Of a stretch of 64,000 bases of DNA, positions 1-38,251 are shown one piece after another. The position numbers were made by a program, and so were the translations under genes. The stretch spans positions 1 to 64,000 of the forward strand of contig CAWFFN010000012.1 of NCBI GenBank assembly GCA_963815115.1, given 5' to 3'. The notes beneath the pieces are model-generated. The model worked only from the letters and a program-made list of their open reading frames with translations, made no database searches and was not told the DNA's origin. Position 1 is the first letter of the stretch. Every line of letters starts with the position of its first letter. The DNA comes from an uncultured delta proteobacterium. Lineage in GTDB: Bacteria > Desulfobacterota > Binatia > DP-6.

Positions 1-47
1 CAGCTTCCCAAGCTGGACGTCGCCGGTTCGACCCCGGTCGCCCGCTC
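1..47 (+). tRNA. 3' part of tRNA-Gly(CCC) (anticodon arm, T arm, acceptor 3' strand); the 5' part would lie before the window
   Basis: CAGC-TTCCCAA-GCTG anticodon stem-loop (CCC), GCCGG-TTCGACC-CCGGT T arm, CGCCCGC-T acceptor strand; CCA not encoded. Cannot tell whether the gene is intact because it is cut by the window edge. Confidence 0.85.
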
Positions 48-288
48 TTTTTTCCGCAGTCGCGCCGCGCAGTTGTGATGGTCTCTTCGGGTTGCCGGCG
101 CGGCGTGCGTTTGATCGATGCCGGTTCTGGTGCCGGTGCGCGCCCCACCGCCTGGCGCAACTCTGGTCCCTCGTGGCGCACCCACTGGATGCGCCGCCGT
201 CGTCGACGGGGCGTACCCGGTACGGCTATTTGAGGCGCTTTCAAGCCGCCAATCTACGGGCTCCGTCGCTGCTCGAGGAGTCGCGCCC

Positions 289-1258
289 ATGAGCTCCCCA
301 CTCCGTCAATGGTTGGAGCGGCTGGGACTCGCCCAGTACGGCGATCGATTCGAAGCCGACGATATCGATCTGGACGTCGCGCCGAGCCTGTCGGAGCAGG
401 ATCTCGAGAAGCTCGGCGTCTCGATGGGCCACCGCAAGCGATTGCTCAAGGCGATTGCGGAGCTGCACGGTGCTCCCGCGTCGCCGGTGGCGTCGGACGG
501 GATGGCTGCTGCGCCGACCCCCCCGAAACGCCTCGCCGACAAGATACCTGCACGCGAAGTCGGCCCTCGAAGGCGAGCGCAAGCAGGTCAGCGTCCTCTT
601 CGCCGACGTGAAGGGCTCGATGGAGCTGGCCGAGCAGATGGACCCCGAGGCCTGGAGCGCGATCATGCAGCGCTTCTTTGCGATCCTGGCCGAAGGCGTG
701 GAGCGTTTCGAGGGCTTCGTCGACAAGTTCACCGGTGATGGCATCATGGCGCTCTTCGGTGCACCGATCGCGCACGAGGACCATGCGCAACGGGCGTGCT
801 TCGCCGCACTGTACCTGCGCGACGAGCTGAAGCGCTATGCGCGAAGGCTCGGTCCGGGCCGAGCTAGCCAGGGCATTGCTCGGGCGCGGCGAGCTGGATC
901 GGGCGGAACAGGAAGCTCATACGGCGGTTACGGTCGCGAGGATGCAGCACTGCCGGTACGACGAGGTGCAGGCGAATCTTGCGGTCGCCCATACCCAGAG
1001 CCGCCGCGCCGATGCGGCGGCTCTGGCGCGCACCGAGCAGGCGCTAGTCCGCGCCCAGGAGCTGATCGACGAAACCGGCGCCTGCGCCTGCCAGCCCGAG
1101 GTGCACGAATGCCACGCTCACGTGGCGCGGCTGCGCGGAGACGCACCGACGCACCCGCCGCACGGCACGAGATCGCAGAGGCCCGACGGCTCTACACCGA
1201 GATGGGCTCGACCGCGCAGACGGAACGACTGGCGAAGGAAATGGACGGCTACGCCTAG
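289..1258 (+). pseudogene. SAM domain + class III adenylate cyclase (N-half) fused to the TPR C-terminus of a STAND ATPase; internal deletion plus frameshifts
   Basis: SAM: LRQWLERLGLAQYGDRFEADDID...GVSMGHRKRLLKAI. Cyclase: EGERKQVSVLFADVKGS...KFTGDGIMALFGAPIAHEDHA. At ~843 it jumps to a helical C-terminus (EARRLYTEMG..ERLAKE). The second cyclase half and the P-loop are missing. Confidence 0.8.
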
Positions 1259-1341
1259 CCCGCGCGAGGCAGCAGGAGTACGTACAGCGACCCAACTTCC
1301 TGGGTCGGGAAGAACCCGGCGAAAGAATGAGGACAGAGCTC

Positions 1342-2061
1342 ATGAGCATCGACTTCAGCGTGAAGGGAAAACATGTACTGATCACCGGTGGCACCGGGGG
1401 GATCGGTGCCGCATTTGCGGAGGCGTTCTCGCAAGCCGGGGCGGTGGTTACGATTGTCGATATCGCACCGCCGCGGGCCGACCAGAAGTCGGATGCCAAA
1501 TACGAACAGGTCGACATGTGCGACGACGCGGCGGTCACCGCGCTCGGTGCCCGCACGGATCGAATGGACGTCGTCATCCATTGCGCGGGCCGCGCCGCGC
1601 TCGACCAGGAATACTCCCCGATCGTCTTCAATCAGATCGTCAACCTGCACCTCACCGGCGCACTTCGCCTCGCCAACGCGTTCCGCCAGCACCTCAAGGC
1701 AAGCCGCGGCTGCATCATCCACATCGCCTCGATGACCTCGTATTTCGCGGCCCCCTATGCCCCGGCCTACGGCGCCGCCAAGACCGGAATCATGTCTCTG
1801 ACCCGCACCCTCGCGGTCGAATTCGCCAGTGACGGCATCCGCGTCAACGCGATTGCGCCGGGCTGGATCGACACGCCCCTCACAAAGGTGGTGCAGGAGC
1901 AGATGCCCGAGATGAACCGGAGGATTCTCGAGCGCCTGCCGTCTGGGCGGTGGAACACGCCGGACGAGTTGGCCGGCCTTGCCGTCTTCCTCGCCTCTCC
2001 GGCATCGAACATCCTTACCGGCGTGACCATCGCCGCCGACGGCGGCTACTCGGTCACCTGA
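1342..2061 (+). CDS. Short-chain dehydrogenase/reductase (SDR)
   Basis: TGGTGGIG Rossmann motif, YGAAK catalytic motif, IRVNAIAPGWIDT, DGG C-terminus. Confidence 0.93.
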   Translation: MSIDFSVKGKHVLITGGTGGIGAAFAEAFSQAGAVVTIVDIAPPRADQKSDAKYEQVDMCDDAAVTALGARTDRMDVVIHCAGRAALDQEYSPIVFNQIVNLHLTGALRLANAFRQHLKASRGCIIHIASMTSYFAAPYAPAYGAAKTGIMSLTRTLAVEFASDGIRVNAIAPGWIDTPLTKVVQEQMPEMNRRILERLPSGRWNTPDELAGLAVFLASPASNILTGVTIAADGGYSVT

Positions 2062-2197
2062 CCCAGGCCGGCTTCGGTGCGCCGTGTAGCTCGCGCTGGA
2101 GGCGTGTCCGGGGATCGCTGCGAGCTCGAACTCTCGGTTGACTCTCGCCGCTGACGGGCCTTTCTTCGGACACGGGCCGGAATGGAGAGGGGCGACC

Positions 2198-3124
2198 ATG
2201 ATCTTTTCGACGCACGAGCATTTCGACAATGCGGCCATCGCGAACGAGCACATCGACGTGCGCCCGATCGCCGCCGCGATGGGGGCGGAGATTGCGGGCG
2301 TCGATTGCGCGAACGTCAGCGACGCCGCGTTTGCCGAGATCGAAGCGGCGCTGTTCCGCCACAAGATGATCTATTTTCGCGGCCAGCAGCGGATGACGCA
2401 TGGTGACCAGTCCGCCTTCAGTCGCCGCTTCGGCCCCTTTGCCGAGGATGCCTATACCCAGGGCGTGCCAGGATTTCCCGAGGTGCAGCCGCTGATCAAG
2501 GAGGCGGACGAGCGCACCGGCCTTCTGTTCGGGTCGGGCTGGCATACCGATTCCGCCTTCCTCCCCGAGCCGCCCGCGATCAGCCTGCTGCGTGCGATCG
2601 AAATACCACCCTTCGGCGGCGATACGATCTGGGCGAACAGCGCGCTGGCGTATCGGGCGTTGAGCCCGACGATGCAGGGTCTGTTGAAGGGCCTCAAGGT
2701 GCACATGTCGATGGGCAACGTACTCGAGTCCGCGCGTGCCTATGCGGCGCCCGTCGACAATCCCATCGGAAGGCTCGCGCAGTCCAAGGGAATGGCCGCG
2801 CTTCCCGACGATCTCGCGCGCAAGGTGCAGGGCAGCTTCCACCCGCTCGTGCGCACCCACCCGCGCACCGGCGAACTGGCGCTCTATTGCGACCAGACCT
2901 ATGCCGCCGGCATCGAGGGGCTGGAGCCGGAAGAGTCCTCGCCGATCCTCGAGTTCCTGAGCGAGCACATCACCCAGCCCGCGTTCACCTGCCGCCTGCG
3001 CTGGGAAGTCGGGATGTTCGTCATGTGGGACAACCGGTTGTGCCTCCATCAAGCGTTCAACGACTACGACGGCCATCGGCGCGAGCTGTATCGCTCGACG
3101 GTCGCTGGCGAGCGTCCGGTGTGA
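2198..3124 (+). CDS. TauD/TfdA family 2-oxoglutarate-dependent dioxygenase
   Basis: GAEIAGVD, WHTD (HxD), GGDTIWAN, HPLVRTHPRTG, WDNRLCLH motifs. Confidence 0.93.
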   Translation: MIFSTHEHFDNAAIANEHIDVRPIAAAMGAEIAGVDCANVSDAAFAEIEAALFRHKMIYFRGQQRMTHGDQSAFSRRFGPFAEDAYTQGVPGFPEVQPLIKEADERTGLLFGSGWHTDSAFLPEPPAISLLRAIEIPPFGGDTIWANSALAYRALSPTMQGLLKGLKVHMSMGNVLESARAYAAPVDNPIGRLAQSKGMAALPDDLARKVQGSFHPLVRTHPRTGELALYCDQTYAAGIEGLEPEESSPILEFLSEHITQPAFTCRLRWEVGMFVMWDNRLCLHQAFNDYDGHRRELYRSTVAGERPV

Positions 3125-3168
3125 GGGTCGCACCAGCGTCGTGACGATTCGCCCCCGCCGGGTTGACG

Positions 3169-6100
3169 TCAGCGCGTCGCGCGCGACTCTTCGAAGCGCG
3201 CCCTCGCGGCGTCGAGGTCGTCGAGCTCGAAGAGCTCCACGCCGGCGAGATCGTCGCGTCCGTACACCATGATCATTGCGTAGACGGAGTCGAAGTCGCC
3301 GCCCTGCGCGAGGGTGCCGAAGCTGCGCGCGATCGAGAGCGTCGCGTGCGGCTCATCGGCGAGGAAGTAGAGCGGCCGGCCGACCATCGCGTCTGGTGAG
3401 AGCTCGAAGAGCGCCACCACCGAGGCGAGGTATGCGTCCGCGCCTTCGAGGCACCCGAGACCGGTGCGCCGATGGTCGCGGAAGAAGAAGTCGTCGGTGA
3501 AGGACGCCCGGAGCCGAGCGAGATCGCGCCCGGCTTCGCGACGCTCCGCGAACTTCCGGACGGTCACTGGCCGGGTGCGGCGGAGGTGGAGTTCCGCGAG
3601 CTCGCCGGATGCGGCGGCACGGTCGTCGGGGTCGAAGCAGATCCACACGACGGCGAGGCCATCGGCAGTCACCTCCGTCAGCGTCAGCAGGTCGATCGCG
3701 AAATCGGCGCCGGACTCCGCTCGGCGCCAGCACCATCGCTCGAGCGCCAGCCGATCGCCAGCGGTGGCGAGGAGCGTGCGCTCGGGGCGCATGCCGTGCG
3801 GCTCCCAGCAGAGCCGCCCGTTCGCAATCGCGAGCTCGCGGTCACCCATCAGGCGAAAGAGGCGACGGCGATCGACGAACGAGAGCGTCGGTCCATAGAG
3901 GGCGGTGAGGCCGTCCCAGTCGCGCGCCTCACCGCACGTCTGCCAGCGGTCGTTCCACCGCGTCGCCGCGTTCGGCGGGATGCGCAGCGGATCGGGACGG
4001 AGCTCCGCCAGGCGTGCCTTCGCCTCGTCGAGGTCTTCGATCTCGAACAGCTCGAGGCGCGTGATGCGGCCGTCGCGGTGCTGAGCCAGAGGTGCTCACT
4101 TTCGAAGGCGCCTCCGTCGGCGAGGGCGCCGGAGCGTCGAAGCAAGGTGATCACGCCATGGCGCTCGACCGCCGGCCAGAACCAGCCGAGCTCCATGCGC
4201 TGGTCCGGCGCGAGATCCCACAGGACCTCGAGGCTCGGGAGGTAGGCGTCGGCGCCCTCGATCCGGCCGAAGCCGGTCCGGCGGTGATCGTCGACGACGA
4301 CGTCGTTCGCGAAGAGCGTCCTCAGGCGTTTCCCGTCCTGCGCGTCGAAGCCGTCGATGGCGGTCCCGATGATCGCCACCCATGGCGCCGCGGCGGGATC
4401 GATCGCGGCCCATCGCGCCCACGCCTCGCGCTGCGCGGCGCGGGCATCGTCGAGGTCGAAGAAGATCATGGCAGTGAACGACCCTGTCTCGTCGATCTCG
4501 ACCACCACGAGGTATTCGACCTCCCAGCGCCCATCGGGTGGACCACCGGACCAGAGCACGCGCGAGACGACGACGCGATCCCCCGCGGTTCCCACGAGCC
4601 GGGATACAGGTCGGCCGCCGCTTCGTGCGCGCTCGCGAGCGGACGCGACCATCATCTCCCTGTCGCCCGAGAGGAGTGCCCGGCGGCGCCGGTCGTCGAA
4701 AACCATCCCCGCGGCGCAGAGGCTGCGCATCGCGGTCCAGTCGTCCGTCGCAGAGCCCTCGTCGAACGCCGCCTGCCAGCGGCTCAGTGCTGCGAACGCC
4801 GCGTTGGATTTGGCGATCGTCGCCAGGGGATCCGTTGGGGCGCCGATGGCCTCGAAGCGCGCGCGCGCCTGGTCGAGCTGGTCGACGTCGTAGAGGTCCC
4901 AGCGCACGATTCGGCCCGCCGCGTCGTGCGCCCCAACGCTGACGAAAGGCGACTCGAACGCACCGCCTTCACGCGTGCCCACCAGCGTTACCTGTATGAG
5001 GTGGACGCGGCCCGAAATGCGGAGGTGTTCGAGGCGATAGTTGCAGTCGGGAGCGAGCTCGACCAGCGCTTGTTGCGCGCGCACGAGCGTACCCGCGTCG
5101 CCGAGCGTCGTGCCCCAGCCAAGCAGCCGGTGATCGTGGAGACCGACGTTCGGGGCGAAGCGCGGCGTAGGCATCCCAGTCGCGTCGCGTGATCACGTCG
5201 CCCATGGAGCGAACGGCTTCGGCCGTGGTCCCGTGCGCCGCCGCCTCGCCCGCGGCCCAGCGCGCGTCGAGCTCGGCCCAGGCGACGACGTCGTCGAGGT
5301 CGTATCGATCGTATGCGACGATCTCGCCGCCCTCATCCGTCTCGATCAAGAGAAGCGAGTCGATCGCGCTCGGGCCGACCGCATCCTCGGCCATGTCCAT
5401 GGTGAATCGCTTGAGGGCGAGCCGCTCGCCGCGCGTCGCGAGCAGCTCCGCCGACGCGCGTACCGCCATGTCGAGCGTCGGGCGCGTGAAGTCGAGGAAT
5501 TGCTCGCGATCGAGATCGAGGTGGAACAGGCGTCGGTGGTCTCGATAGCCGAGCGGGCGCGGGTGGAGGGCCGCGAAGCGCTCGGCGTCGCGCCGTGCCC
5601 AGGCGGCCAGGACATCCAGCCACGCTCGCGACGCGGCGTTGGCGAACGGGGGCTCCGGCGCCGCGGACGCCCGGTCGGTGCTCCCGACGAGCGCATCGTA
5701 GCGTGCGAGCGCTTCGTCCTCCTGCTCGGGCTCGAATAGCTCCCAGCGTGCGAGGCCATCGGCGTCGTGGACGCGGAGCGAGCAGACCGGGCGCTCCCAG
5801 GCGCCGCCGCTCGCGCGGGCGCGGCCGCGCTGGGTCGCGCGCAGGACGCTCGCGTGGTCCGAGAGCGCCAGGACGTCGTCGAGACGCAAGCTGACGTCGT
5901 CCGAGGGATCATGGAGCGCGCGCAGCGCCGCGACCACGGCGTCCCGACCGTGCAGCTCTCCGAATCCGACCGTGCGATGGTCGATGGCGACGATTGCCGG
6001 CGCGAAGGTGGTGCCGTGGCGATCGGGATCGGTGGCGTGGCGAATGAACCCTGCGGTCGCGCGCGCCGCGGCGGCCGCGCGGGCTCGCGCCGAACCGTCG

Positions 6101-9100
6101 GGCAGCAGCTCCGCGTGACGCTCGTAGAGGCGGACGAGAGCATCGCCCAGATGGTCGGCCGCGAAGTACTCGCTCCGGACGGTGAAGCCATCCTCGTCGA
6201 CCTCGCTGACGAGGATCTCCTCCCGCTCGAACGCCGCCACGTCGAACTGCCCGCCGCTGGTGCCGTCCACGAACGTCCAGTGGCGCGTGAGGTCGAGTCG
6301 ATCGCCGAGGTGGCCGAGCGGCTCGAAGCGAAGCCTCGGATTCTTCGCGCGCAGCAGCGAGCGCAGCGACTTGAGCAGGCCGTCGCGGCCGTACACGGCG
6401 CCCGTCGGGTGATCCACCCGTTCCCGGAAGCGGGAGAACAGCTCCTCCAATGCGGCCATGTCGCGCGCGGCCAGCGCGGCGTCGAAACGGGCCTGCATGG
6501 CGCCGCGGGCGGCGGTCGGCAGACGACGGCGGGCCGGGCGCGACGCCGGGGGCCCGGTCGTGAGCGCGGCGAAGCGTGCCAGCGCGTCGGCTTCGCGGTC
6601 GGATTCCCACAGCTCGGCCCGCGTCAAGAGTCCGTCGGGTCCGAAGGCGAAGAGCGCGAGGAGCGGATGATCGAAGAAGCCCCCGGTGGTTCGTTCGTTG
6701 CCGAAATAGGTCTGGCGAACGAGCAAGATGTCGGGCGCGAGGGCGAGCACGTCGTCGTGGCGCACGGACCCGGTGGCGAGGTCGAGCTGGCCGCGCCACT
6801 GTTCGAGGAACTCGTTCGCCCCTCGGGCGCTCCAGAGGTGAAGACTTCGATGATCGACGCATTCCATGAGCGGGGCCGTCGTGGCCGCCACGCGGTCCGG
6901 GTCGATCGATCCGTTCCACACCGCGACCGACCGCGCCGTCGCCACGGCCCGCTCTCGATCCGGGCCGTCGGGCAGCAGCTCGGCGTAGCGTTGGTAGAGC
7001 CGTGCGACGGCGTTGCCGAGGCGGTCATCGGCGAAGACCTCGCTGCGCTTCCGCTGCTCGCGGCCGTCCACCTCGAAGACGGCGAAGTAGTCGCCCTCGA
7101 CGGGTCCAACCGAGCCGAACTTCGCGTCGACGCCGTCGTGCGCGTACGAGGTGCGCAGCAGCGCGAGCGAGTCGCCGAGTGCCCCGAGGGACTCCTGCGC
7201 GAACCTGACGTTCCGGCCCCGCCAGAGCCCGCGATGCAGGGCGAGCACCTCGGCCACTCCATACGTCACGCCGGTCGGGTGGTGGATCACTTCCACCGGA
7301 TCGGCGTGGGCGGCGAGCAGGGCCGCCTCGTCGCACGCCTCGATCGCCGCCCAGACGCGCTCGGCGTTGCGCGTAGCGGCATTCGCACGCACGAGGCGGG
7401 CGGATCGCTTCGGCACCTCACCGGCGACCAGCGCATCGAAGCGCGCGAGCGCCTCGGCTTCGTGATCGGCGTCGAACCATTCGATGCGCGCGAGCCGCCC
7501 CTCGTCGTCGGTGGCGAAGAGCGCGAGGAAGAGCCGCTCGTAGACGCCGCCGCCGAGGCGCTCGTTGCCCGAGTGCATCCTCTCGACGAGCTTTGCGTTC
7601 GGCTCCAGCGCGAGGACCGCGTGGTCCCGGAAGACGATCTCGCTGGCGACCTCCCGCAGGGCACGGAAGTGATCGAGGAACGCGGCGGCGCCCCGGAGCG
7701 ACCAGGTTCCGAGCCGCCGATGATCGATCGACTCGAAGTCGGGGGCGAGCACGGCCGCCCAACGATCGAGATCGGTCTACGCCCGGATCTGCGCGCCCAT
7801 CGCGCGCGCCGTCGCCGCCGCGCGCTCGCGCGCCGGGCCCTCGGGCAGGAGCTCGGCGTAGCGCTCGTAGAGGCGGACTATCGCATCGCCGAGGCGGTTG
7901 GACGCGAACACCTCTGCATGCCGGCAGAGACCGACCTCGTTGACCTCAAAGAGCTGGATCCCCTCGTTCTCGTAGGCGCCGACGTCGTAGCGACCGCTGG
8001 CGGCCCCGGCCGCGTGGTAGCGGCGCCGTATCAGAAGAAGGGACTCACCGAGCGTTGCGAGCGGCTCGACCTCGTAGTGCGAATCACGCGATCGGAACAG
8101 GCGCTGGATGGAGGCCATGCACGCGTCGCGCCCGTAGGTCGATCCCGTCGGATGATCGATCTCCTGATGGCTCTCAGCGAAGACGGCCGCTATCGCATCG
8201 ACGTCGCGGGCGGCGACGGCGGCGTCGAAGCGGGCCTGCATCGCGGTCGCCGCGTTCGGACGCACGCGCCGCCGCCGCGCCGGCGGTGCGGCGATGGGCT
8301 CCTCGGCGGGGACGTCGACCGGCGCGACGCGACCGGCATCGCCTCGCGCGCGCTCCACAAGCAGCGTCGCCCCCTTCGCCTCCCAGAGCTCGATCGCGCG
8401 ACGCTCCTCGGCGTCGGCCTCGGCGCCACGTCCGGCCGCGCGCAGCGCCGCCGCGAGCGCCACGCGCGCGTCGGCGTGGTCGAGGAGCGCGTCGGTGGCG
8501 GCGGCGATGGTCACGGCGGCCTGCGCCAGCGCGACGGCGGCGGCGTGATCGCCGCGCTTCGCCAACGCCTCGGCACGAGCCCCGCGCCAGGCGATCGCGG
8601 CCTGGAGATCGTCGCCGGCGAGCGCCTCGCTCTCGCGCGAGCACGCCTCCGCTTCGTCGATCCGCCCTTGTGCGAGCAGGGCGCGCGCGAGCAAGGCTGC
8701 CGCGCGGGCCGCGTCGATCCCGAGCCCGAGGTCGCGCAGCCCCTCGTATGCACCGCGAAGCGAGCGCTCGGCCGCCGCCGCGTCGCCCTCGAGGAGATCG
8801 ATCCGCCCGGCGAACGCGTCGGCCTCGAAGAGCCGGTGCGCGATGCCGAGCTCCTCCACCATCGTGCGCGCCGACCCGATCATGCGCCGGGCCGCGTCGG
8901 TGCGCCCGCGGAGCGCTTCGAGCACGCCCTGGCAGCTCAGCGCCACCGCCTCGACCGCCGGCGCCCCCTGCGTGATGCGCAGGACGCGCACCACGTCGAG
9001 GCAGCGGCCGCTCGCGCGCGTCACCGGGCTCGGTCCCCAGAGCGCCGCCAGCGGTGCACCCGCCAGGACCGCGTTCGCGCGGCGCCGATCGCCCGCGCGA

Positions 9101-11564
9101 CGAGCGGCGGCGAGCGCCAGATCGAGCGCCGCCTCGCAGGCGCCGACCTTCCCGAGGCGCGCGAGCGCCTGCGCATGGACGAAGTGAGCCTTCGCTTCGC
9201 CAGCGGCATCATCGAGCGCCGCCAGATCCCGCGCCGCGCCGCCGACGCGCTCTGCGGTTGCCTGCAGCGCCTCGGGCGCGGTGAGCACGGTGAGCTGGCC
9301 CGCGAAGCACGTGTGCCAGGCGCGCAGCCGGGCGGAGTCGCCGGCGACGCGACAGAGCTCGTCGATGGCGGCGCCGGCCGGTCCTACGTCGCCGGCCGAG
9401 AGCAGCGCCTCGCACCAATCGAGCGCCAGATCGGCCCGCTCGGGAGCGTCCGGTGCGAGCCGATCGATGGCGCGCCCGAGGAGACTCGCCGCGAGCGGGA
9501 CGTCGTCGCGTGCGAGCGCCCTTCGTCCCGCCGCGGCCAGGCGTTGCGACGCCCGTTCGCCGAGGCGACGTCCGCGCGCATCGAGCGTGCCCAGCTCGCG
9601 CAGGTGCTGGTGCGCCTGCTCGAAGTGCCAGCCGATCATTTCGTCGTGCTCGGGCGCGTCGCCGACTTGCGCCTCTATCCAGTCGGCGAGCCGCTCGTGC
9701 AGTTCGGCGCGTGTCCCCTTGAGCAGGCGCCGGTACGCCGCGTCCCGGATCAGGACGTGGTGGAAGCGCAGCGCCGGCTCGCCGAGGAGCCAGCCCGTGT
9801 CGCGCTCGATGAGCTCGCTCCGGCGGAGCGACTCGAGGCGTGCGTCGAGATCGCTGCCGTTGCGCCCCAGAAGCGCAGCGAGCGCGCTCCGCGAGAAATG
9901 ACGACCCACGACCGCCGCGCGCTCGAGCACGGTCCGGTCTTCGGGCCGCAAGCGCTCGATGCGCGCGGCGAGCAGTGCGTGGATGGTGGGCGGCATCTCC
10001 AGCGCGGCCAGCCCGGCGCCGATCGCCCAGCGGTCGCCCTCTTTGGTGAGCGCGCCTTCCTGCACCAGCATGCGCACCAGCTCGCCCACGAAGAGCGGGT
10101 TGCCCTCGCTCGCTGCGAGCACCTTGACCGCGACCGCCGCAGGCAGGTCGGCCGCACCGATCACGTTCGCCGCGAGCCGCATCGCCGCGCCAGCGTCGAG
10201 GCCGCCGAGCGTCACCACGTCGGCGACGAGCCCGCCGGGCGTCGCGAGCGTCGAGCGGAGATCGCGCAGCTCCGGGCGCGCGCCGACCAGCACGAAGAGC
10301 TGCACGCCGCCGCCCCACTGCACCAGGTGCTCCACCAGGTCGAGGAGGAGCGGTTCCGCCCAGTGCAGGTCGTCGATCACCAGGAACACGGGGCGCGCGC
10401 TGGCGAGACCGGAGAGGAACGGACGACGAAGAACGTCTCCTCGGGCGACGTGGGCGACCCGCCGAGCAGCGCCGCCACGCCGCCGGCGACGCGCACCCGC
10501 TCGGCGTCGTCGACGGCGGACGGGAGGGCGGCGGCGATCGCGGCGCGGGCCGGCTCGCCGGTGGCGCCGTCGTCGAGACCGAGGACCGCTCGAATGGCCT
10601 GGGCGAGCGGCGCGAACGTGGCGCCGCCGGCGGCATCGCAGTGCGCCGTGAGGATCGTCGCCGTCTCCGCGTGGCGGCGCGCGAACTCGTCGATCAGGCG
10701 CGATTTGCCGAGCCCGGGCGAGCCCAGCAGCACGGCGAGCCGCGCGGCCGGGGTCGCGACCGCGGCGTCGTACACGGCGCCGAGCCGCCCGGCCTCGTCG
10801 TCGCGCCCGACGAAGGCCGCGGTCATCGCGCTCGCCGGTTTCTCCAGCGACACGACGCGGTACGCGCCGACGGCTTCGTCGCGGCCCTTGAGGATCACGC
10901 TTCCGAGCGGCTCCAGGGTCACCAGGGTGGCGACGAGGCGCCGGGTGGATTCGCCGATCACGACGTCGCCGTCGCGCGCCTGGTCCTGGAGGCGCGCCGC
11001 GACGTTGACCGGGTCGCCGATCAGCTCGGTCTCGCCCTTGGCGACGACTTCGCCGGTGTTGAGCGCGACGCGCAGACCGACCTTGCCGACGAGATTGCTG
11101 TGGCGTTCGGCGACCTCGCGGAACACGCGCTGCATGTCGACGGCGGCGCGCACGGCGCGTATGGCATCGTCCTCGGCAACCAGCGGAAGACCGAAGACCG
11201 CCATCACGCCGTCGCCGAGCAGCTTGGCTACCCGGCCGCCGTGCTGCTCCACGGCGCCGCCCATCGCGCGGTAATAGCCTTCCATGAAGAGGCGGGCCGA
11301 CTCGGCGTCGAGCCTTTCGTGCAGGGCGGTCGAGCCGGCCAGGTCGGCGAAGACAACGGTGACCACCTTGCGCGTCCCGTCGGCGTCCGCGGCGGGTGTG
11401 GGCACCGGCGCCGCGCCGGTCGCGGTGCCGCACTCGTCGCAGAACTTCGCGGAGGCGCGTAGGTGGGCCCCGCAGCTCGCGCAGGGGCGCGGCAGGGGAG
11501 CCGCGCATTCCTCGCAGAACTTCGCGCCGGAGCGGTTCTCGTGCTGGCAGCGGGGGCAGGTCAT
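3169..11564 (-). CDS. Giant (~2,800 aa) double Zn-ribbon / class III adenylate cyclase / STAND AAA ATPase / TPR protein with 12 C-terminal SnoaL(NTF2)-like repeats; broken by 3 frameshifts and one in-frame TAG
   Basis: MTCPRCQHEN..FCEECA..CASCG..FCDECG; VTVVFADLAGST, KLLGDG, GDPVNVAARLQ; Walker A GSPGLGKS; Walker B LVIDDLHWAE; SEGNPLFVGEL; FHHVLIRDAAY; then repeats with DHPTG/DHRR motifs. Frame breaks near 10420, 5165 and 4075; TAG at 7777-7779. Confidence 0.85.
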
Positions 11565-11805
11565 GGCCTGACTCGCAGGACTACACGGAGGGCAGGGGGT
11601 GAGGACAGGCGGAGTGCAGCCGACGGTGGTTGTTGCGGTCGACGAAACGCCCGATCTCCCGCGATCTTGGTGCCGGTAGCGGTGCCGGTTGAGCGGCGAA
11701 AATGGGCGAGTCTCAGTGAACTCAGTAGAAACCGGAAGTCGCCCTAAGCTCCTGGCGCTTCGCCGATTATGCCCAAGGATCATAGTCTTCCGGGCCTTCG
11801 TCGAA

Positions 11806-11861
11806 CAGCTTCCCAAGCTGGACGTCGCCGGTTCGACCCCGGTCGCCCGCTCTTCTTTCCG
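11806..11861 (+). repeat. Second copy of the tRNA-Gly(CCC) 3' part (att-like direct repeat of 1-56)
   Basis: 55/56 nt identical to 1-56. The upstream sequence (..gccttcgtcgaa) is not a tRNA 5' half, so this is a fragment starting in the anticodon stem. Confidence 0.92.
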
Positions 11862-11866
11862 TCGAG

Positions 11867-12126
11867 GTGCGCGCCGAGCTCGCTCCGTCGCGCGTGCTGC
11901 GCGCCGTCTATGGCACCGGCGCGAGTGCCGACATCGCAGCCGCGCTGGATCGGGCTCAGACGCTGGTGCAGTCGACCGGCGCGCGCCCCTACGAGCCGCA
12001 GGCGCGACGCCGCCCGCGATCTGCTCGCCCCCGGTGTACGCCTGGTTCACCGAAGGCTTCGACACGCGCGACCTGAAGGCAGCGAAAGCACTGCTCGACG
12101 AGCTGGCGGCCCGAGGTCGCGCTTGA
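11867..12126 (+). pseudogene. Relic made of C-terminal pieces of STAND/cyclase-type regulators
   Basis: ..DIAAALDRAQTLVQSTGARPYEPQ joined, with frameshifts, to [30 protein letters not shown], the typical family C-terminus also seen in 25119-28130. Confidence 0.75.
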
Positions 12127-12159
12127 TCGACCGTAGCCTCTAGGCTACGGTCGGCCTGG

Positions 12160-12480
12160 TTGATCGATATCCGCAAGTATCGCCGTGCCGATGGCGTGGT
12201 TCCGTTCGATCGGTGGATGGCAACACTGCGGGACGCGCGTGCGAAGGCGCGGATTCTCGTTCAGCTCGACCGCCTGCGGCTCGGCCTCCCGGGCGACTGG
12301 AAGGCGGTCGGTGCGGGGGTGTTCGAGCTTCGTATCCATGAAGGCAAGGGGTACCGAGTGTACTTCGCACGAGAAGGAGCGACCGTCGTCGTGCTGCTCT
12401 GCGCGGGCGACAAGTCGGGGCAGAGCGGCGACATCGATCAAGCGAAATCGTATTGGCGAGAATATCGGAGGCAAGCATGA
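12160..12480 (+). CDS. RelE/ParE-superfamily addiction module toxin (HI1419-like)
   Basis: FDRWMATLRD.RAKARI..L.GLPGDWKAVGAGVFELRIHEGKGYRVYF..LLCAGDK; ATGA overlap with the antidote gene. Confidence 0.9.
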   Translation: MIDIRKYRRADGVVPFDRWMATLRDARAKARILVQLDRLRLGLPGDWKAVGAGVFELRIHEGKGYRVYFAREGATVVVLLCAGDKSGQSGDIDQAKSYWREYRRQA

Positions 12481-12767
12481 AGGCGGCTGCATACAAGGGT
12501 TCGGACTACCTGAAGACACAGAAAGACGTCGTCGCGTATCTCAACGCGGCGTTGGAGGACGGCGAGCCGGCCGTCTTGTTGGAGGCGCTGCGTAACGTGG
12601 CGATCGCCAAAGGCGGGATGGCCGCTCTTGCGCGCGCTGCGGGTGTGAGCCGCGAGAGTCTCTACCGCACACTGTCGCGTCGGGGGAACCCAAAGATCGA
12701 GACGATCATGGAACTCCTTCGCGCACTGGGTCTCAAGCTGACCGTCGAGCGGGGGCGGGCGGCGTAA
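12477..12767 (+). CDS. Addiction module antidote, Xre-HTH (HI1420-like)
   Basis: DYLKT..VVAYLNAALEDG...GGMAALARAAGVSRESLYRTLSRRGNPKIET. Confidence 0.9.
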   Translation: MKAAAYKGSDYLKTQKDVVAYLNAALEDGEPAVLLEALRNVAIAKGGMAALARAAGVSRESLYRTLSRRGNPKIETIMELLRALGLKLTVERGRAA

Positions 12768-13188
12768 ACGCTTCTCCCATGCGGTCGGTGGCATCGGCCG
12801 CCGTCGTGGGGACCTGTTGGCGATCCACGTCCGGTGGCTGAAGGCGATCTTCCGGGGGAGCCTTCATCAGCTCGACGTCCAGCTCTCTGATCTGGACGTC
12901 ACCCGAATCATCCCAAATCTCGCGCGGCGAGACTGCGACCCGGCAATTCGCGGAAAATCGCGGGCGCAAACGATGGGCCCCGCAGCACGCGGCCGGTCAC
13001 GGGTTCGCGGCATCGTCACCGCGACTGCCGTCGCCGGTGCGGGCGCGAGTGGGCGATCGCCGATCGATTTGCTCCAGGCGATCCGTTCGCGGCCTGGGGC
13101 ACGCGCTCGCTCGTTCCGAGGTCCCCGGGCGGTTCAGCTGAACGGCGCCCGCTCGACATCGGCGTCCTGTACGAGCAGTAGCCGGACG

Positions 13189-13545
13189 TCAGGCTCGCAG
13201 GGTGTCGATCTCGCCGGCACCCGCCTCGCGTTGTGGACGGAGCAGGAAGAGGAGCCATGCGAGGATCATGTTCGGCAGCTCGTACATGGCCAGGCCGACC
13301 TGGTTGTACCGGCCGGGAGCGATCGTGGTGCCGAACGACAAGTAGCTGCTCTCGCCTTCGACGATCATCCCGCCCAGGCGGCACAGCGCGAGCCCGGTGA
13401 GGGCGAGGACGAAGAACACGAATGCGGAGTTGCGATGCTTGGGGCGGAACACTCCGAGGAGCGCGAAGATCCCGATGGCCATTTGCAGGCCGCCGTACAT
13501 CATCACGTCACCCCGGACCGCTGGTACCGTATCCGCAAGGCGCGC
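13189..13545 (-). pseudogene. 5'-truncated DUF4345-like membrane protein
   Basis: MYGGLQMAIG...GLALCRLGG hydrophobic motifs; no convincing N-terminus and flanked by unrelated fragments. Confidence 0.5.
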
Positions 13546-14002
13546 CAGGTCTTCGACCACGTGACCCGCATCTACACGCTCATCCTCGATGGCTTCGAGA
13601 AGTACGTGCCGCTCGGAGACCGTCACGTCACGACGAGTGCCGTCGGACCGAGCGGCCTCTGGCTCGGTGAGCTGTCCGAGCGGCTTCCCGTCGTTCGACG
13701 TCGAGGTGGCCGCGTGTCGATGCTGAGCCATGTTCCGGGCCGCGACCTGCGGACCATGGTCTGGCATCTGGCAAAAACCCAAACACCACGGCACGACCCG
13801 GCCCAGGAGCCGCTCCCCACGTGGGTGAACGAATGGCACGCGGCGTACGAGTCCGGCGCCGACGTGACCACCTACGAAGGCGCACGACTATGAACGCGGC
13901 AACCGAACAGGCGGATCCCGACGGCAACCACGTCGGGTTGATGAGTCCTCGCGAGCCGGCGCGCAGGACGGCGCCTCGCGCAACCGGCGGCCGATTCCCG
14001 CA

Positions 14003-14030
14003 TGTCGATTCCGCTCGTCCCCGACCGACC
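14003..14030 (+). promoter_or_regulatory. Possible ECF-type promoter upstream of the YciI gene
   Basis: TGTCGA-N17-CGAC about 25 nt before the start, resembling TGTC../CGTC-type ECF promoters; inference. Confidence 0.35.
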
Positions 14031-14054
14031 AGGTGACGTAAAGGAGAGACACCC

Positions 14055-14450
14055 ATGAAGTACCTCTGCCTGGCCTACTACGACGAGAAGAAGTTCGAGA
14101 CGCTGACCGAGGCCGAGATGGCGGCGATCGGCCGCGAGTGCCGGCCGCTCGACGAGGACCTGCAACGTAGCGGTCACCTGCTGGAGGTCGGCTCGCTCGC
14201 CGCCACCAAAGACTCGGTCAGCCTGCGGCCCAGGAAGGGCAAGGTCACCGTCACCGACGGCCCGTATGCCGAGACCAAGGAGCAACTCGGGAGCTACTTC
14301 CTGATCGAAGCGCGGGATCTGAACGAGGCCATCCAGGTGGCGTCGAAGCACCCCGCGGCACGGATGAACGAGCACCTGGGCTGGGGCGTGGAGGTGCGGC
14401 CCATCGAGATGTGCCGCGTCGAGGCGGTGACGGAACCCGCCACGCGGTGA
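14055..14450 (+). CDS. YciI/DGPF domain protein
   Basis: MKYLCLAY...VTDGPYAETKEQLGSYFLIEARDLNEA...VEVRPI; RBS AAGGAG. Confidence 0.92.
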   Translation: MKYLCLAYYDEKKFETLTEAEMAAIGRECRPLDEDLQRSGHLLEVGSLAATKDSVSLRPRKGKVTVTDGPYAETKEQLGSYFLIEARDLNEAIQVASKHPAARMNEHLGWGVEVRPIEMCRVEAVTEPATR

Positions 14451-14565
14451 GCGACGCCGCCTGCCGCGCGCGGGCGATGATGGACGCCGGACTCGGCGCC
14501 GGAAGCTGGCGAAGTCCGACCTCGTCGCGCCTTTGGCGGAAGGTCGAAGAAATGGTTGGCGCGGC

Positions 14566-15312
14566 TCAGCGCCTGCCGGTCCCCAGGTCGTCCGAATACC
14601 CGGCCTTCAGGCGAGACCACTGGGCGGTGGGACGTCCATCGGTACGGGTAACTTGCCTGCCTTTGAACCGTTGTGGCCAGCCGGTCGGTGAGTCCTCCCA
14701 CGTCTCCTGCCGCCCGTAGGCGGTCAGGTCGAGCAACCGATAGCTATTGTCCATCGCCTCGACGCCGCGTCTCGTCGTCCAGTAAGTCTCGAAGACGTTG
14801 GATCCTCGTCGCAGGTAGCAAACGATGTGCATCATGCCCACCCGGCGTCCAACCAGGAGAGTGTCGAGCGAGTCCTGGGCCGAGTACCAAGGCATCTCCC
14901 AGCCCATGAAGTCGCGGTACCGGGCACTCTCCTCGTACGGGCCCTGGCAAAACGTGGCGTAGGTGACGTCGCGAGAATGAACATAGGACAGCTCGCGGAC
15001 CTGCGATGTAACCCAGGTGCACCCCTCGCACTGCTCCGGCGCAGGGTCGCCGGTGTGCCACATGAAGTAGTAGGCGATGAGCATCCGGCGTCCCTCGAAC
15101 GCGTCCAATAGTGTCACCGCGCCACGTTCGCCAACGAGCGCCGTGGCCCCATCCACCTCGACCATGGGGAGCCGCCGCCGGGCGGCCGCAATGGCGTCGC
15201 CTTCTCTCGTGTGGGCCTTCTCTCGAACCCGGAGTGCGTCCAGCTCGGCCTGGAAGGTGCTCCGATCGACTATCTCAGGGGCTCCGAGTTCATCGCTCAT
15301 GAAGTCGTCCAT
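14566..15312 (-). CDS. DUF899 family thioredoxin-like protein
   Basis: REKAHTREGDAIAAARRRLPMVEV, FEGRRMLIAYYFMW, CEGC, LDLTAYGRQETWEDSPTGWPQ. Confidence 0.9.
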   Translation of the reverse strand: MDDFMSDELGAPEIVDRSTFQAELDALRVREKAHTREGDAIAAARRRLPMVEVDGATALVGERGAVTLLDAFEGRRMLIAYYFMWHTGDPAPEQCEGCTWVTSQVRELSYVHSRDVTYATFCQGPYEESARYRDFMGWEMPWYSAQDSLDTLLVGRRVGMMHIVCYLRRGSNVFETYWTTRRGVEAMDNSYRLLDLTAYGRQETWEDSPTGWPQRFKGRQVTRTDGRPTAQWSRLKAGYSDDLGTGRR

Positions 15313-15338
15313 CGTTCTCTCCGTTCGCCTCGTCGCCC

Positions 15339-15980
15339 TTACTTCTTTTTCCGCTTGAGCCGGCGGACGATCCGCACCTTGCCGCTGGATCCTCCGCCGC
15401 AGAAGAAGCGATCGCCGCCGTCGGACTCGAGCCCGGACACGGTCACGCCGGTCGGCATCTCGAGCCGCTCAAGGACTTCGCCCGTTCCCGGATCGACGCG
15501 CCGCAGATCGCTCTCGTCACCTTCCCAGGTGCCGTGCCAGAGCTCGCCGTCGACCCAGGTGACGCCGGTGACGAAACGGTCGGACTCGATCGTGCGGCGG
15601 ATCGCGCCCGTCTCGGGATCGATCTGATGGATCTTCCGATCCCGGTACTGTCCCACCCAGAGCGTTCCTTCGGCCCACGTGAGCCCCGAGCCGCCGCCGC
15701 CGGGCGCCGGGATCGTGGCGAGCACACGGCCGGTCTTCGGATCGATCTTCTGGATGCGATCGTCGGCGAGCTGGAACAGGTGCTTACCGTCGAAGGCGGT
15801 TCCGGCATGCGCGGCGACGTCGATCGAGCGCAGCGTCTTTCCGCTCGCCGGGTCGAGCGCTTTCAGCGTGTCGCCGGCGGCGAACCAGACATGCCGGCCG
15901 TCGTACGTGACCCCGTTCACCTGCTCGACACCGGGAAAGGGTCCATACTCCGCGAGGATCTCGGCTGCCGACCGGTGCAT
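15339..15980 (-). CDS. Glutaminyl-cyclotransferase-like beta-propeller protein
   Basis: Repeated GVTYDG/GTAFDG/GLTWAEG/GVTWVDG/GLESDG blades. Confidence 0.8.
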   Translation of the reverse strand: MHRSAAEILAEYGPFPGVEQVNGVTYDGRHVWFAAGDTLKALDPASGKTLRSIDVAAHAGTAFDGKHLFQLADDRIQKIDPKTGRVLATIPAPGGGGSGLTWAEGTLWVGQYRDRKIHQIDPETGAIRRTIESDRFVTGVTWVDGELWHGTWEGDESDLRRVDPGTGEVLERLEMPTGVTVSGLESDGGDRFFCGGGSSGKVRIVRRLKRKKK

Positions 15981-15989
15981 GCGCCCATC

Positions 15990-17210
15990 CTAGCCACTCG
16001 GCAGCGGAGCGGGGAGTAACAAGGTCGTCGTGAATCCCGGCACGGGCGGCGTCATCCAACGCCGCGCGCGCCCGTGACCGAACGCCTGCACCTTGCCTGC
16101 GCCCGCGAGCGCCTCGAGCGCCCGCTGCACGGTGCGCTGGCTCGTGCCGAGCGCGAGCGCCAGGGCCGAGCTCGACCACGATTCGCCGTCGGCGAGCAAG
16201 GCGAGCACCGCCGCGTGCTCCTCCTCGACGGGCCGTCCCAGGACGACGACCTCGCGCGCTCGGCGTGGCGCCAGCGTGAACCCTCGCGGCGTCGCGTTCA
16301 CGTGGGCCAGCATCCCAAGCGCCCTGCGAAGGCGCCCGACTTCGACGCGCAAGCGCGCGCGATGCGATTCGTCGGCGACCCTCGCGCCGAATGCCCGCGC
16401 GAGCAGCACGTCCCTCGGCACGTCGGCCGGCCATGCTTCGCCGAGGGCGCGTGCGAGCGCGAACAACACCGGACGCCGCGCGAGCGGGACGACGCTGCGG
16501 GCATCACGCACGACGTGGCGGCACGCGTCCACGACGAGCGCCTTCGACGCCAGCAACGCTTCGACGTCCTCGAGCAGGAGCGATCGCTCCTCCCCGCGCG
16601 CGATCAGGCGAGCCGCCGGCGTGTCCAGGGCGCGCGCCGCCCGTTCGACCTCCGCCGTCAGCGCCGGGATGCGTGCCCGGCGCGCTGCGCGCCCGGCCCG
16701 AGCGAGCGCCGCGCGCGCGGCCGTCGTCCGGAGGCGCCGTATCGCGATCCCCGCGATCATCAGCTCGTGGACGGTCCGCGACGCGGGCGGGAAGGGCGAG
16801 GGGTCGAGCGCGGCGAGCGTGCCCTCGGCCTCGTCGAGACGTCCGATCAGGAGGAGGTGGCGCACCTCGAGATACCGCGCGTGCGCGGCGTTCACCCGGT
16901 CGCCGTGCGACTCGAGCGTCGTCCGCGCCGCGTCGAGCGTCTTCGCCGACCACCCCAGGTCGCGCGCGGCGAGCGCGATCTCGGCCTCGGCGACGACGCA
17001 CCGCGCGCGGGACACCGCCTCCCTCGGTCCGAAGGCGCGCGCGGCGCGGCGCAGGAGCGTCCTCGCCCAGACGAGATCGCCGAGCTGCGCCATGGCGATA
17101 CCCCGCAGCGCGAGCGCGGGCGCGTCGTCGCGCAGGGCGACCCGCCTCAACGCGCCGAGGGGATCGCCCGCCGCGAGCGCGATCCCGGCGGCCGTGATCA
17201 GCGAATCCAT
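15990..17210 (-). CDS. TPR-like plus C-terminal HTH DNA-binding protein
   Basis: MDSLITAAGIALAAGDPLGALRRVALRDD..; C-terminal WSSSALALALGTSQRTVQRAL HTH. Confidence 0.85.
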   Translation of the reverse strand: MDSLITAAGIALAAGDPLGALRRVALRDDAPALALRGIAMAQLGDLVWARTLLRRAARAFGPREAVSRARCVVAEAEIALAARDLGWSAKTLDAARTTLESHGDRVNAAHARYLEVRHLLLIGRLDEAEGTLAALDPSPFPPASRTVHELMIAGIAIRRLRTTAARAALARAGRAARRARIPALTAEVERAARALDTPAARLIARGEERSLLLEDVEALLASKALVVDACRHVVRDARSVVPLARRPVLFALARALGEAWPADVPRDVLLARAFGARVADESHRARLRVEVGRLRRALGMLAHVNATPRGFTLAPRRAREVVVLGRPVEEEHAAVLALLADGESWSSSALALALGTSQRTVQRALEALAGAGKVQAFGHGRARRWMTPPVPGFTTTLLLPAPLPSG

Positions 17211-17290
17211 CGAAATCCCGTCAAATTTGTCACTCCCACCGTTCGATGGGCGGGGCTAAGACTACTTCACGAAGGGAGGAGAGGAGACCC

Positions 17291-18097
17291 ATGCCGAAGC
17301 ACCGGACCGGGACACGTGAAGAATGGCTGGCCGAGCGTCGCGAGCTGCTCGCGGCGGAGAAGGAGCAGACGCGGCGCGGCGACGAGCTGGCGCGGCGGCG
17401 GCAGGAGCTCCCGTGGGTCCGGATCGACAAGGCATATCGATTCGACACCGATGACGGCGCCGCCTCGCTGGCGGAACTCTTCCGCGGACGCTCGCAGCTC
17501 CTCGTCTACCACTTCATGTTCGGGCCCGACTACACGGCGGGATGCCCGTCCTGCTCTGCGATCGCCGACGGGTTCGACGGCAGCGTCGTCCACCTGGCCA
17601 ACCACGACGTCACGCTGTGTGCGGTGTCGCGGGCGCCGCTCGCGAAGCTGCAGGCGTACAAGCGGCGGATGGGGTGGACGTTCCCCTGGGCGTCCTCGTT
17701 CGGCGGCGACTTCAACGCCGACTTCCACGTCACGTTCACCGAGGCGCAGCAGCGCGAGGGCGGCATCGAGTACAACTTCCGCCGCGAGGCGGGCGCACCG
17801 CTGGTCGGACACGACACGAAGACGTGGAAGGCGAGCGAGCCTGCCCGGGAAGCCGGCGGCGAGGGCCCCGTCGCCCAGATGGCGGCGGCCACCGGAACGG
17901 ACGTGCCGACGTACACCCGGGAGCGGCCGGGCATGAGCGCGTTCGTGCGCGAGGACGGGGTCGTCTACCACACGTACTCCGCGTACGCGCGCGGGGTCGA
18001 CGGCCTCTGGGGCATGTACCAGTGGCTCGACCGCGCGTCCCGCGGCCGCAACGAGACGGGCATCTGGTGGCGTCGCCACGACGAGTACGGGCGCTGA
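17291..18097 (+). CDS. DUF899 family thioredoxin-like protein (second paralog)
   Basis: REEWLAERRELLAAEKE, LFRGRSQLLVYHFMFGP, CPSC, YHTYSAYARG; strong RBS GGAGGAGAGGAG. Confidence 0.92.
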   Translation: MPKHRTGTREEWLAERRELLAAEKEQTRRGDELARRRQELPWVRIDKAYRFDTDDGAASLAELFRGRSQLLVYHFMFGPDYTAGCPSCSAIADGFDGSVVHLANHDVTLCAVSRAPLAKLQAYKRRMGWTFPWASSFGGDFNADFHVTFTEAQQREGGIEYNFRREAGAPLVGHDTKTWKASEPAREAGGEGPVAQMAAATGTDVPTYTRERPGMSAFVREDGVVYHTYSAYARGVDGLWGMYQWLDRASRGRNETGIWWRRHDEYGR

Positions 18098-18105
18098 GCG
18101 ACGTC

Positions 18106-18310
18106 ATGGCGGTCATGGCGCAGGACTCGAGATCGTTGCGACGCATGGCGTTCGAGCGAGACGCCGAGCGAGCGTTCCTCGGCGTTGCGAGTGGCGGCCG
18201 CCGTCACGGCCGAACGGCTCGCACCGGCCGGTGAGCGCGTCGCGCGCGGCGTCGGGGTCGTCGTCATCGGGACAGGGCTGCTCCTGATCGCGCGAGCCGC
18301 CCCCGGATGA
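18106..18310 (+). pseudogene. DUF2182 membrane protein collapsed by internal deletion
   Basis: N-terminal MAFERDAERAFLGVA joined out of frame at ~18190 to C-terminal VAAAVTAERLAPAGERVARGVGVVVIGTGLLLIARAA; DUF2182 usually follows DUF899. Confidence 0.7.
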
Positions 18311-19256: not shown

Positions 19257-19359
19257 TCTCCGGGCGCGCCGCATGGCTCGACGCGAGCCTGCCGCTCGAG
19301 CGGCTCCGCGCCGGCGAGGTCGGCGACGAACTTCGCCTCCTGCGCGGCGAAGAACGACC

Positions 19360-20854: not shown

Positions 20855-20894
20855 GGGAAATCCTTTCGCTCTGTGGTCAATGGCGCTGATGGAG

Positions 20895-38225: not shown

Positions 38226-38251
<26 letters not shown>

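Follow-up and report, generated by a model that had tools for sequence, protein, structure and literature searches.

A cyclase-STAND-TPR protein with twelve NTF2-like units in an uncultured deltaproteobacterium: architecture, family grammar and a proposed one-site readout

The sensors of STAND proteins are usually single TPR, WD40 or LRR solenoids. The SWACOS clade, reportedly defined by Leipe in 2004, is said to include the animal soluble adenylyl cyclase (sAC). For full-length sAC, the account given in PMC12802110 reports no specific regulator. In MalT and PH0952, autoinhibition by the nucleotide-binding oligomerization domain (NOD), the arm and the TPR is released by the inducer and oligomerization follows, as outlined in PMC6468293 and PMC4381067. 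A SnoaL_2 domain fused to a regulator is present in sigma-J (ECF41) of M. tuberculosis, where it was proposed to be the receptor for an unidentified ligand (PMC5766207), and the mycobacterial proteins Mclx and Rv0386 join a cyclase to a STAND part, Rv0386 having about 20% guanylyl side activity (PMC4452763). AfsR is described as a SARP-NOD-TPR protein (PMC10936776), and the fungal NOD-like receptors (NLRs) het-d and het-e as STANDs with shuffled WD40 repeats (PMC12222747). A survey of STANDs (bioRxiv 10.64898/2026.01.04.697583) gives TPR-like, WD40 and FGE domains as defence-associated sensors, and its main text names neither NTF2 nor SnoaL. In this work, we analyzed a stretch of 64,000 nucleotides (nt) from an uncultured delta proteobacterium of the Binatia (assembly GCA_963815115.1, contig CAWFFN010000012.1, positions 1 to 64,000; hereafter the window), in which a single gene at 3169..11564 encodes a cyclase-STAND-TPR protein whose presumed sensor is a string of whole pocket domains.

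The gene starts with an ATG at 11564 and stops with a TGA at 3169-3171 on the minus strand; reading through its four breaks, with X at each, gives a protein of 2,799 amino acids (aa). A preliminary description of this DNA, made from the letters alone, had proposed zinc ribbons, a cyclase retaining both Asp, Lys and Asn/Arg, a P-loop and twelve units ordered as (A-B)x3 followed by (C-D)x3, and this observation was confirmed by Pfam matches (DZR at aa 3-46, Guanylate_cyc at 67-231, AAA_16, TPR, and SnoaL_2/DUF4440 in all four repeat-holding pieces) and by the residues given below. The twelve units, of 131-149 aa each, run as ABABABCDCDCD. Members of one class are 32-48% identical to one another; B is related to D (most pairs 38-67 bits), A and C are set apart, and the DNA repeats within the gene are spaced 816-873 nt. 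The TPR, which had been called short and thought to be replaced by the array, is in fact full-length (about 435 aa) and conserved, and is predicted by modeling to be, probably, the site on which the array docks. The features of the gene are as follows.

3169..11564, minus strand: whole gene, double zinc ribbon-cyclase-STAND-TPR-(AB)3(CD)3, in five pieces, about 2,800 aa on read-through
11427..11558, minus strand: double zinc ribbon with four CxxC (PF12773)
10872..11366, minus strand: class III nucleotide cyclase (D74, K114, D118, E180, N187, R191)
9646..10820, minus strand: STAND NTPase with helical and winged-helix parts (Walker A aa 281-288, Walker B D398/D399, GNP 488-490)
8341..9645, minus strand: arm/TPR region, about 435 aa, inherited together with the array
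8974..9021, minus strand: near-invariant TPR helix aa 849-864, on which the pocket mouth of a B unit is predicted to dock
7831..8256, minus strand: unit A1
7384..7830, minus strand: unit B1, containing the in-frame TAG 7777-7779
6958..7383, minus strand: unit A2
6517..6957, minus strand: unit B2, which docks on the TPR in the modeled complex
6088..6516, minus strand: unit A3
5641..6087, minus strand: unit B3
5239..5640, minus strand: unit C1
4806..5238, minus strand: unit D1, frameshift at about 5160
4395..4805, minus strand: unit C2
3973..4394, minus strand: unit D2, frameshift at about 4075-4086
3580..3972, minus strand: unit C3
3172..3579, minus strand: unit D3, C-terminal

The fusion is real, since the unbroken homologue P0033 (2,789 aa) matches the read-through protein at 66% identity end to end (aa 1-2796); many further homologues align to it at 48-65%. 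The possibility that the segments are always separate genes, raised in the preliminary description as what would overturn its reading, was ruled out, as the homologues are single fused genes. Three of the breaks are frameshifts (10420-10421, which interrupts the STAND part; about 5160; 4075-4086) and the fourth is the in-frame TAG at 7777-7779, which corresponds to Glu in P0033. Stop-codon readthrough or programmed frameshifting is unsupported, because the homologues have Glu or a complete frame at these sites. We consider it probable that the breaks are assembly errors rather than real lesions. A recent pseudogene appears somewhat unlikely for the window copy. In favor of one, the breaks are multi-base deletions and a nonsense codon, differing from those of an acyl-CoA dehydrogenase gene in the window, which appear as single-base insertions, and an adjoining SAM-cyclase gene is genuinely degraded, having lost about 800 aa. 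Against this, missense decay was not seen (1 of 417 conserved head columns is off, rank 8 of 95 heads, namely those of 94 full-head homologues and that of the window), the units lie at the family median, further genes in the window are broken, and the record places the piece with this gene in a 908-kb contig. Breaks in related loci occurred in none of 17 isolate genomes, in 8 of 18 metagenome-assembled genomes (MAGs) that we take to be long-read from their MFD titles, and in 5 of 37 other MAGs, counts which leave out L003 and L024, both also split-looking.

In the head, the window cyclase has all residues expected of a class III enzyme, with the metal-binding Asp D74 and D118, the substrate residue K114, the acidic E180, N187 and R191. 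Among the 95 heads D74 is kept in 93, D118 in 95, N187 in 93 and R191 in 89, and the zinc-ribbon Cys in 73-79, while at position 114 there are 35 heads with Lys, 58 with Gln and 2 with His. Because the substrate Lys is Gln in 58 of the 95, the purely cyclic AMP (cAMP) output suggested earlier is not assured across the family, and the Gln variants may make some cyclic GMP too. The hairpin before E180 is 7 residues shorter than in CyaB-type enzymes, which suggests that the cyclase would dimerize poorly alone. The Gly/Lys/Ser of Walker A, the DD of Walker B and the GNP are each present in 95 of 95 heads. The P-loop with Walker A and B, the GxP motif of STANDs described in PMC6468293, the winged helix, the AAA_16 match and the layout of effector, NTPase and arm/sensor (cyclase, NTPase, 435-aa TPR) place the protein among the STANDs.

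The fold of the units was examined with AlphaFold2, a check that the preliminary description had called for. The window segment A2B2A3B3 (pLDDT 92.2, pTM 0.62, linker 281-286 below 50) and the CDCD segment of the homologue L002 (pLDDT 94.6, pTM 0.73) show the NTF2 pattern, a cone-shaped alpha+beta fold, in every modeled unit. The matches are ketosteroid isomerase (KSI)-like domains at template modeling scores of 0.7-0.8 (Z 15.8, root mean square deviation, rmsd, 2.2 over 120 residues), the closest being KSI, limonene epoxide hydrolase and polyether epoxide hydrolases, and they include two small-molecule binders designed on an NTF2 scaffold (8uqf, 8vfq). By sequence, TIGR02096 matches at 43.6 bits against a cut-off of 97, a search of the PDB with P0033 matched the cyclase alone, and the ESM Atlas returned unnamed SnoaL_2 clusters only, mostly of Actinomycetota. 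Covariation over 824 CD pairs places the last helix of each unit on its conserved sheet face and supports a C-D interface, with contacts from D to the next C almost absent; over 580 AB pairs the signal is weaker. In these models every unit forms an NTF2 cone, closed on its outer face by the last helix of that same unit, C and D form a rigid module, A and B probably do likewise, and the modules hang on flexible linkers. The canonical NTF2 pseudo-dimer was rejected, as two-domain superpositions gave an rmsd of 12-15 A and covariation shows the unit's own last helix occupying that face.

Variation among the units is concentrated at the pocket. The pocket-facing columns have an entropy of 3.1-3.3 bits, compared with 2.0-2.3 on helix surfaces (p <=3e-5 in all four classes), exceed the outer-face columns in all classes too, and are 66-74% hydrophobic. 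Entropy correlates with the coupling of a column to helices on the pocket side (rho 0.60 for C and 0.35 for D), and within subtypes pocket conservation exceeds that of the surface in C only (p 0.022, uncorrected). Positive selection of an arms-race kind was not seen, dN/dS never exceeding 1 in close pairs.

These features also bear on two other readings. The units could be non-binding scaffolds, either spacers with filled cores or competing autoinhibitory caps, with the TPR itself sensing as in MalT; the mostly hydrophobic pocket columns, a dN/dS equal to that of the surface and a full-length, highly conserved TPR fit this possibility. However, the core of a fold would be expected to vary less than its surface and here it varies more, up to 41 units per protein are kept with almost none more than 80% alike, and the modeled TPR contact lies at the pocket mouth, and we regard the scaffold reading as unlikely. 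Alternatively, the array could be catalytic, with KSI-, epoxide-hydrolase- or cyclase-like units whose turnover or product is coupled to the STAND head. The nearest folds are enzymes of these kinds, and 94-98% of B, C and D units retain an Asp in alignment with KSI residue 38. In KSI the oxyanion hole consists of a Tyr and a second Asp. No second conserved polar pocket column, and thus no conserved oxyanion hole, was found in the units, the Asp is kept in only 49% of A units, the array stands behind the same TPR in 51 of 51 representatives with a long N-terminus and not behind biosynthetic domains, and no pathway context was found in the neighboring open reading frames (ORFs) scanned (70 of 70 non-actinobacterial, 75 of 105 actinobacterial), all of which makes catalysis quite improbable.

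The repeat region, used as query, matched 387 proteins of 1,522-4,345 aa, and the best 120 of these were analyzed. As the preliminary description had anticipated of a homologue survey, unit number and order vary, and they do so under a fixed grammar. Among the 94 proteins with a full head, all arrays open with A and 84 close with D; 70 are strictly (AB)m(CD)n, the arrays hold from 6 to at least 22 units, and 55 distinct unit strings occur. Over the 120 proteins, joins from B to C number 124 and those from D to A only 9. A genome scan kept 72 loci of at least 216 confirmed stretches. Among the matches listed, loci occur in Binatia, Myxococcota, uncultured deltaproteobacteria, Eisenbacteria, Spirochaetales, Oceanococcus, and many mycobacteria and other Actinomycetota, and non-actinobacterial arrays reach 26 units. 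The closest named relatives of the window gene appear to be Binatia-like or from uncultured deltaproteobacteria. The mycobacterial proteins mentioned in the preliminary description proved to be relatives: 11 of 11 scanned heads of that type are winged helix-turn-helix (wHTH)-BTAD-cyclase-STAND-TPR, followed by CC(DC)n arrays, the longest of which has 41 units and belongs to a gene with both ends open. When 1.84 billion representatives were searched with a profile, 1,805 matches reached E<=1e-30 (clusters at 50% identity, fragments included).

The units behave as exchangeable cassettes. The nearest relative of a unit lay inside the same protein for 34 of 484 A, 47 of 492 B, 28 of 431 C and 17 of 409 D units, and in another protein in 90-96% of cases, likeness within proteins being no higher than between them. 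The window protein is itself a mosaic, with B1 86% identical to P0033, B2 83% to P0035 and 44% to P0033, and A1 80% to P0035; in the related locus L030 the head is 68-75% identical to that of the window and no unit exceeds 52%. Recent tandem duplication was rejected, as a single pair above 80% was found across eight long arrays. Several genomes hold 2-3 paralogues, and in six locus pairs the paralogues of one genome had no closely shared units (at most 0.63). Some single cases are also of note: L013 has two array genes in tandem (6680-23481), P0359 carries a BTAD-cyclase front on another NTPase type and may be a head-swapping intermediate, and P0280 has a run of C-like units in which fewer units were detected than its length allows.

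The TPR is the best-conserved part between the two head types. Compared with mycobacterial array proteins, the window TPR is 52-59% identical, the NTPase 27-28%, and cyclase and NTPase taken over all comparisons 27-31%, no closer than to array-less paralogues; array-less neighbors reach only 27-34% in cyclase and NTPase, and no significant match to the TPR was found in array-less proteins. Of 137 new profile matches examined, 51 have more than 250 residues ahead of the array, and this TPR type is present in every one of them. Conversely, 57 of 82 proteins reaching the end of this TPR type run on into units; many of the remaining 25 look truncated or frameshifted by eye, and a few proteins stop after one D unit (P0166, P0224). 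In a tree of 19 NTPase rows the array-bearing heads split into two clades, with one array-less row as a long branch, and a single clade of array-bearing NTPases was rejected (p-AU 0.0099). Since the TPR is shared with the mycobacterial proteins while NTPase and cyclase have diverged, and since the heads fall into two clades, the sequences argue that TPR and array are a portable block. In the same tree the NTPase of Oceanococcus (Pseudomonadota; L029, L034) is nested among Binatia/Myxococcota-type rows, a possible transfer.

For the docking model, the window TPR (54-row alignment) was folded with the module A2B2 (60 rows). The complex reached a score of 0.81, compared with 0.00 for the best of 3 controls. 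Among solved complexes 116 of 157 attain the mark for this score, and among mismatched pairs 2 of 215, counts that apply only approximately to these alignments. The docking runs share at least 96% of contacts, with a partner pLDDT of at least 90. In the model only unit B contacts the TPR, through its first hairpin, helix 3 and the GGx[FY]E hairpin, parts which we read as the rim of the cone, and which meet TPR helix aa 849-864 and its neighbors. The TPR interface columns are conserved at 0.90 compared with 0.75 elsewhere (p 6e-6) across Binatia-type and mycobacterial proteins, and 19 of 27 are invariant in 54 sequences. On the unit side, the docking Gly and aromatic residue are kept in B and in non-actinobacterial D units, and A and C units have no conserved counterpart of them. 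The pocket mouth of a B unit is thus modeled as docking onto a near-invariant TPR helix.

We therefore propose, at about even chances, that the protein is a soluble one-component STAND receptor in which different pockets compete for one TPR site, and in which ligand in any of them changes the docking and gates oligomerization and the cyclase. All B and D units would compete for the single docking site, and ligand in any one unit would alter docking, acting as glue or by displacement and so with either sign, which amounts to an OR logic. Altered docking would release the autoinhibition by arm and TPR, and ADP/ATP exchange and oligomerization would follow by analogy with MalT and PH0952. Class III cyclase domains need dimers, and oligomerization would pair them and yield cAMP; in mycobacteria the same sensor may also drive a SARP-type DNA-binding head. 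The units would bind small molecules, most likely hydrophobic soil metabolites or xenobiotics.

Several points weigh against this proposal. It gives the pockets of A and C no role; the docking model covers a single B unit (B2) and no D unit, and in actinobacterial D units the aromatic docking residue is shifted. The pocket columns were picked after the entropies had been seen, and a blind test for period 2 (strand alternation) over predicted strands was not significant (p 0.22 and 0.23). Within subtypes, pocket conservation was not above that of the surface in A, B, D or actinobacterial units, and dN/dS at the pocket resembled that at the surface, with values of 0.27-0.40 for A, C and D from 57 independent pairs of these classes, besides one uninformative B pair. 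Moreover, the window copy has four breaks, and no conserved neighbor pointing to a ligand was found among the neighboring ORFs scanned.

The surroundings of the gene were examined as well. The preliminary description had placed it in a mobile islet with an SDR and a TauD dioxygenase; the islet stands, bounded by repeats from a tRNA-Gly, and the two enzymes as partners do not.

1..56, plus strand: left repeat copy, 3' half of tRNA-Gly(CCC), cut by the window edge
1327..2061, plus strand: SDR, inside the islet, not conserved
2138..3124, plus strand: TauD dioxygenase, convergent neighbor
11806..11861, plus strand: right repeat copy, with no 5' tRNA half upstream, likely attachment (att) site

The two 56-nt copies are 98% identical and bound 57-11805, and a 22-nt probe from the repeat gave 2 matches where 0.01 were expected. 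Since the left copy is cut by the window edge, the whole tRNA may sit just outside. The likely att repeats match the 3' end of the tRNA, as in tRNA-Gly integrative elements, and no integrase was recognized among the called genes in 57-11805. Neither Rfam nor ARAGORN reported anything in the window, and no promoter or terminator signal above chance was found in it. A direct repeat, GGTGCCGGT x2, 12 nt apart, lies at 11669-11690, about 120 nt inside the right att copy, with a similar motif near 128-138; it resembles the arm sites of integrases. As a family trait, tRNA-linked islands were not borne out (tRNA in 5 of 60 loci). A conserved operon with SDR and TauD was likewise rejected, each domain occurring once in the 70 non-actinobacterial neighbor ORFs; the exception is L030, which has a 90% identical TauD in the same position beside an array with units at most 52% identical. 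After the left repeat lies the SAM-cyclase gene remnant (289-1258, plus strand), of the array-less cyclase-STAND-TPR type, with a frameshift and about 800 aa deleted, and after the right repeat a lone TPR C-terminus (11864-12125, plus strand), the remnant of another array-less cyclase-STAND-TPR gene, so that the tRNA-Gly site looks like a hotspot for such genes.

An islet anchored at a tRNA, together with a STAND protein whose C-terminal repertoire is shuffled and variable, several paralogues per genome, and toxin-antitoxin-like genes beside 5 related loci (AbiEii, Fic, MNT-HepT, PemK, PIN), would also suit an NLR of anti-phage or other conflict, in which the array would recognize proteins or peptides of foreign origin or serve as a set of decoys and the cyclic nucleotide would trigger defence, similarly to Avs or Pycsar. 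Nevertheless, the only PADLOC match is a weak one of the cyclase domain to PycC (best E 3e-14), and Avs is left unmatched; neither a match to the system models with an adjacent effector nor a nuclease-type effector domain was found, and no conserved effector gene appeared among the scanned neighbors. In addition, dN/dS is below 1, the variable face lines the interior of the cone rather than its surface, phage and plasmid collections gave no match, and the mycobacterial form bears a transcription-activator head. A defence role is therefore, in our view, decidedly unlikely.

Elsewhere in the window, a RelE/HigB-like toxin with an HI1420-type antitoxin lies just beyond the right repeat (12160-12767, plus strand), and two DUF899-like genes (14566-15312, minus strand; 17246-18097, plus strand) lie close to the array gene. 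The first of these has matches of 71-75% downstream of six actinobacterial array genes (L037, L039, L050, L055, L062, L069), often beside an HTH-AHSA1 gene, where chance or mycobacterial synteny is possible. A second STAND gene, of array-less wHTH-AAA-TPR type, is found at 25119-28130 (minus strand). The acyl-CoA dehydrogenase gene (41595-42805, plus strand) has about seven frame breaks resembling single-base insertions, probably consensus errors; an NtrC-like regulator (36898-38251, plus strand) has one frameshift close to its end, and 57273-57968 (minus strand) is a lone C-terminal fragment of a Mg-transporting P-type ATPase. Inspection by eye suggests that 49011-53376 (minus strand) is an operon for a NiFe hydrogenase of the sulfhydrogenase type, including a maturation protease.

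What was directly observed is how the protein is built, the (AB)m(CD)n grammar of its family, the exchange of units that makes the arrays mosaic, and the constant association of arrays with a single TPR type; these observations lend partial support to the earlier interpretation of the protein. Compared with the usual solenoids, this sensor stands out by its grammar, its cassette exchange and a proposed one-site readout. If the proposal is true, the protein would be a natural many-ligand OR gate and a bacterial model for STAND-tail control of a soluble cyclase, and the 1,805 clusters would form a large untapped library of diversified NTF2 pockets, a fold that also serves as scaffold for designed small-molecule binders. 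It can be tested directly, since environmental mycobacteria that grow in culture have intact genes. More tentatively, and with the odds somewhat against it, we suggest that soil bacteria maintain, within single proteins, a small-molecule receptor repertoire that recombines, in which up to about 40 different NTF2 pockets are swapped between genes as cassettes and take turns in docking on a single invariant TPR helix. Any recognized chemical would then fire the STAND switch, and TPR and array would be a portable sensor grafted onto different cyclase and transcription-factor heads.

Databases name the array proteins by their domains only, and no description of the family was found in the searched literature, which leaves out most subscription papers; the family is apparently undescribed. 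SWACOS cyclase-STAND-TPR proteins share with the window protein a cyclase N-terminal to a STAND NTPase and helical repeats, and differ from its family in the distinct TPR type and the 6-41 NTF2 units of the latter; TIGR03903 matches in part (212 bits against a cut-off of 706), and the NTPase tree contained no SWACOS reference members. The mycobacterial head resembles the SARP-NOD-TPR layout of AfsR, but AfsR, Mclx and Rv0386 are without NTF2 arrays, and the window protein ends at unit D3, with no C-terminal LuxR HTH as in Mclx. In sigma-J one SnoaL domain sits on a sigma factor, whereas here a shuffled array sits on a STAND protein. Lsd19, the tandem NTF2 epoxide hydrolases MonBI/BII and KSI are the top fold matches, and Lsd19 and MonB have two NTF2 domains per chain; the unit pairs of the array pack differently, since the two-domain rmsd is 12-15 A, without the sheet-to-sheet packing of those enzymes, and the catalytic sets are not conserved in the units. 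As in het-d and het-e, the sensor repertoire of a STAND changes by repeat exchange, but their repeats are internally highly conserved, whereas the units here are no more alike within a protein than between proteins and each is a whole pocket domain. MalT and PH0952 served as the template for the inferred switch, oligomerization being known for them and proposed here; the window protein differs in having a cyclase as output and in that its TPR appears, from the model, to dock a tethered pocket domain rather than the inducer itself. The protein is a STAND by the motifs examined and would work like the MalT-type STAND receptors, but with a sensor design that we did not find described.

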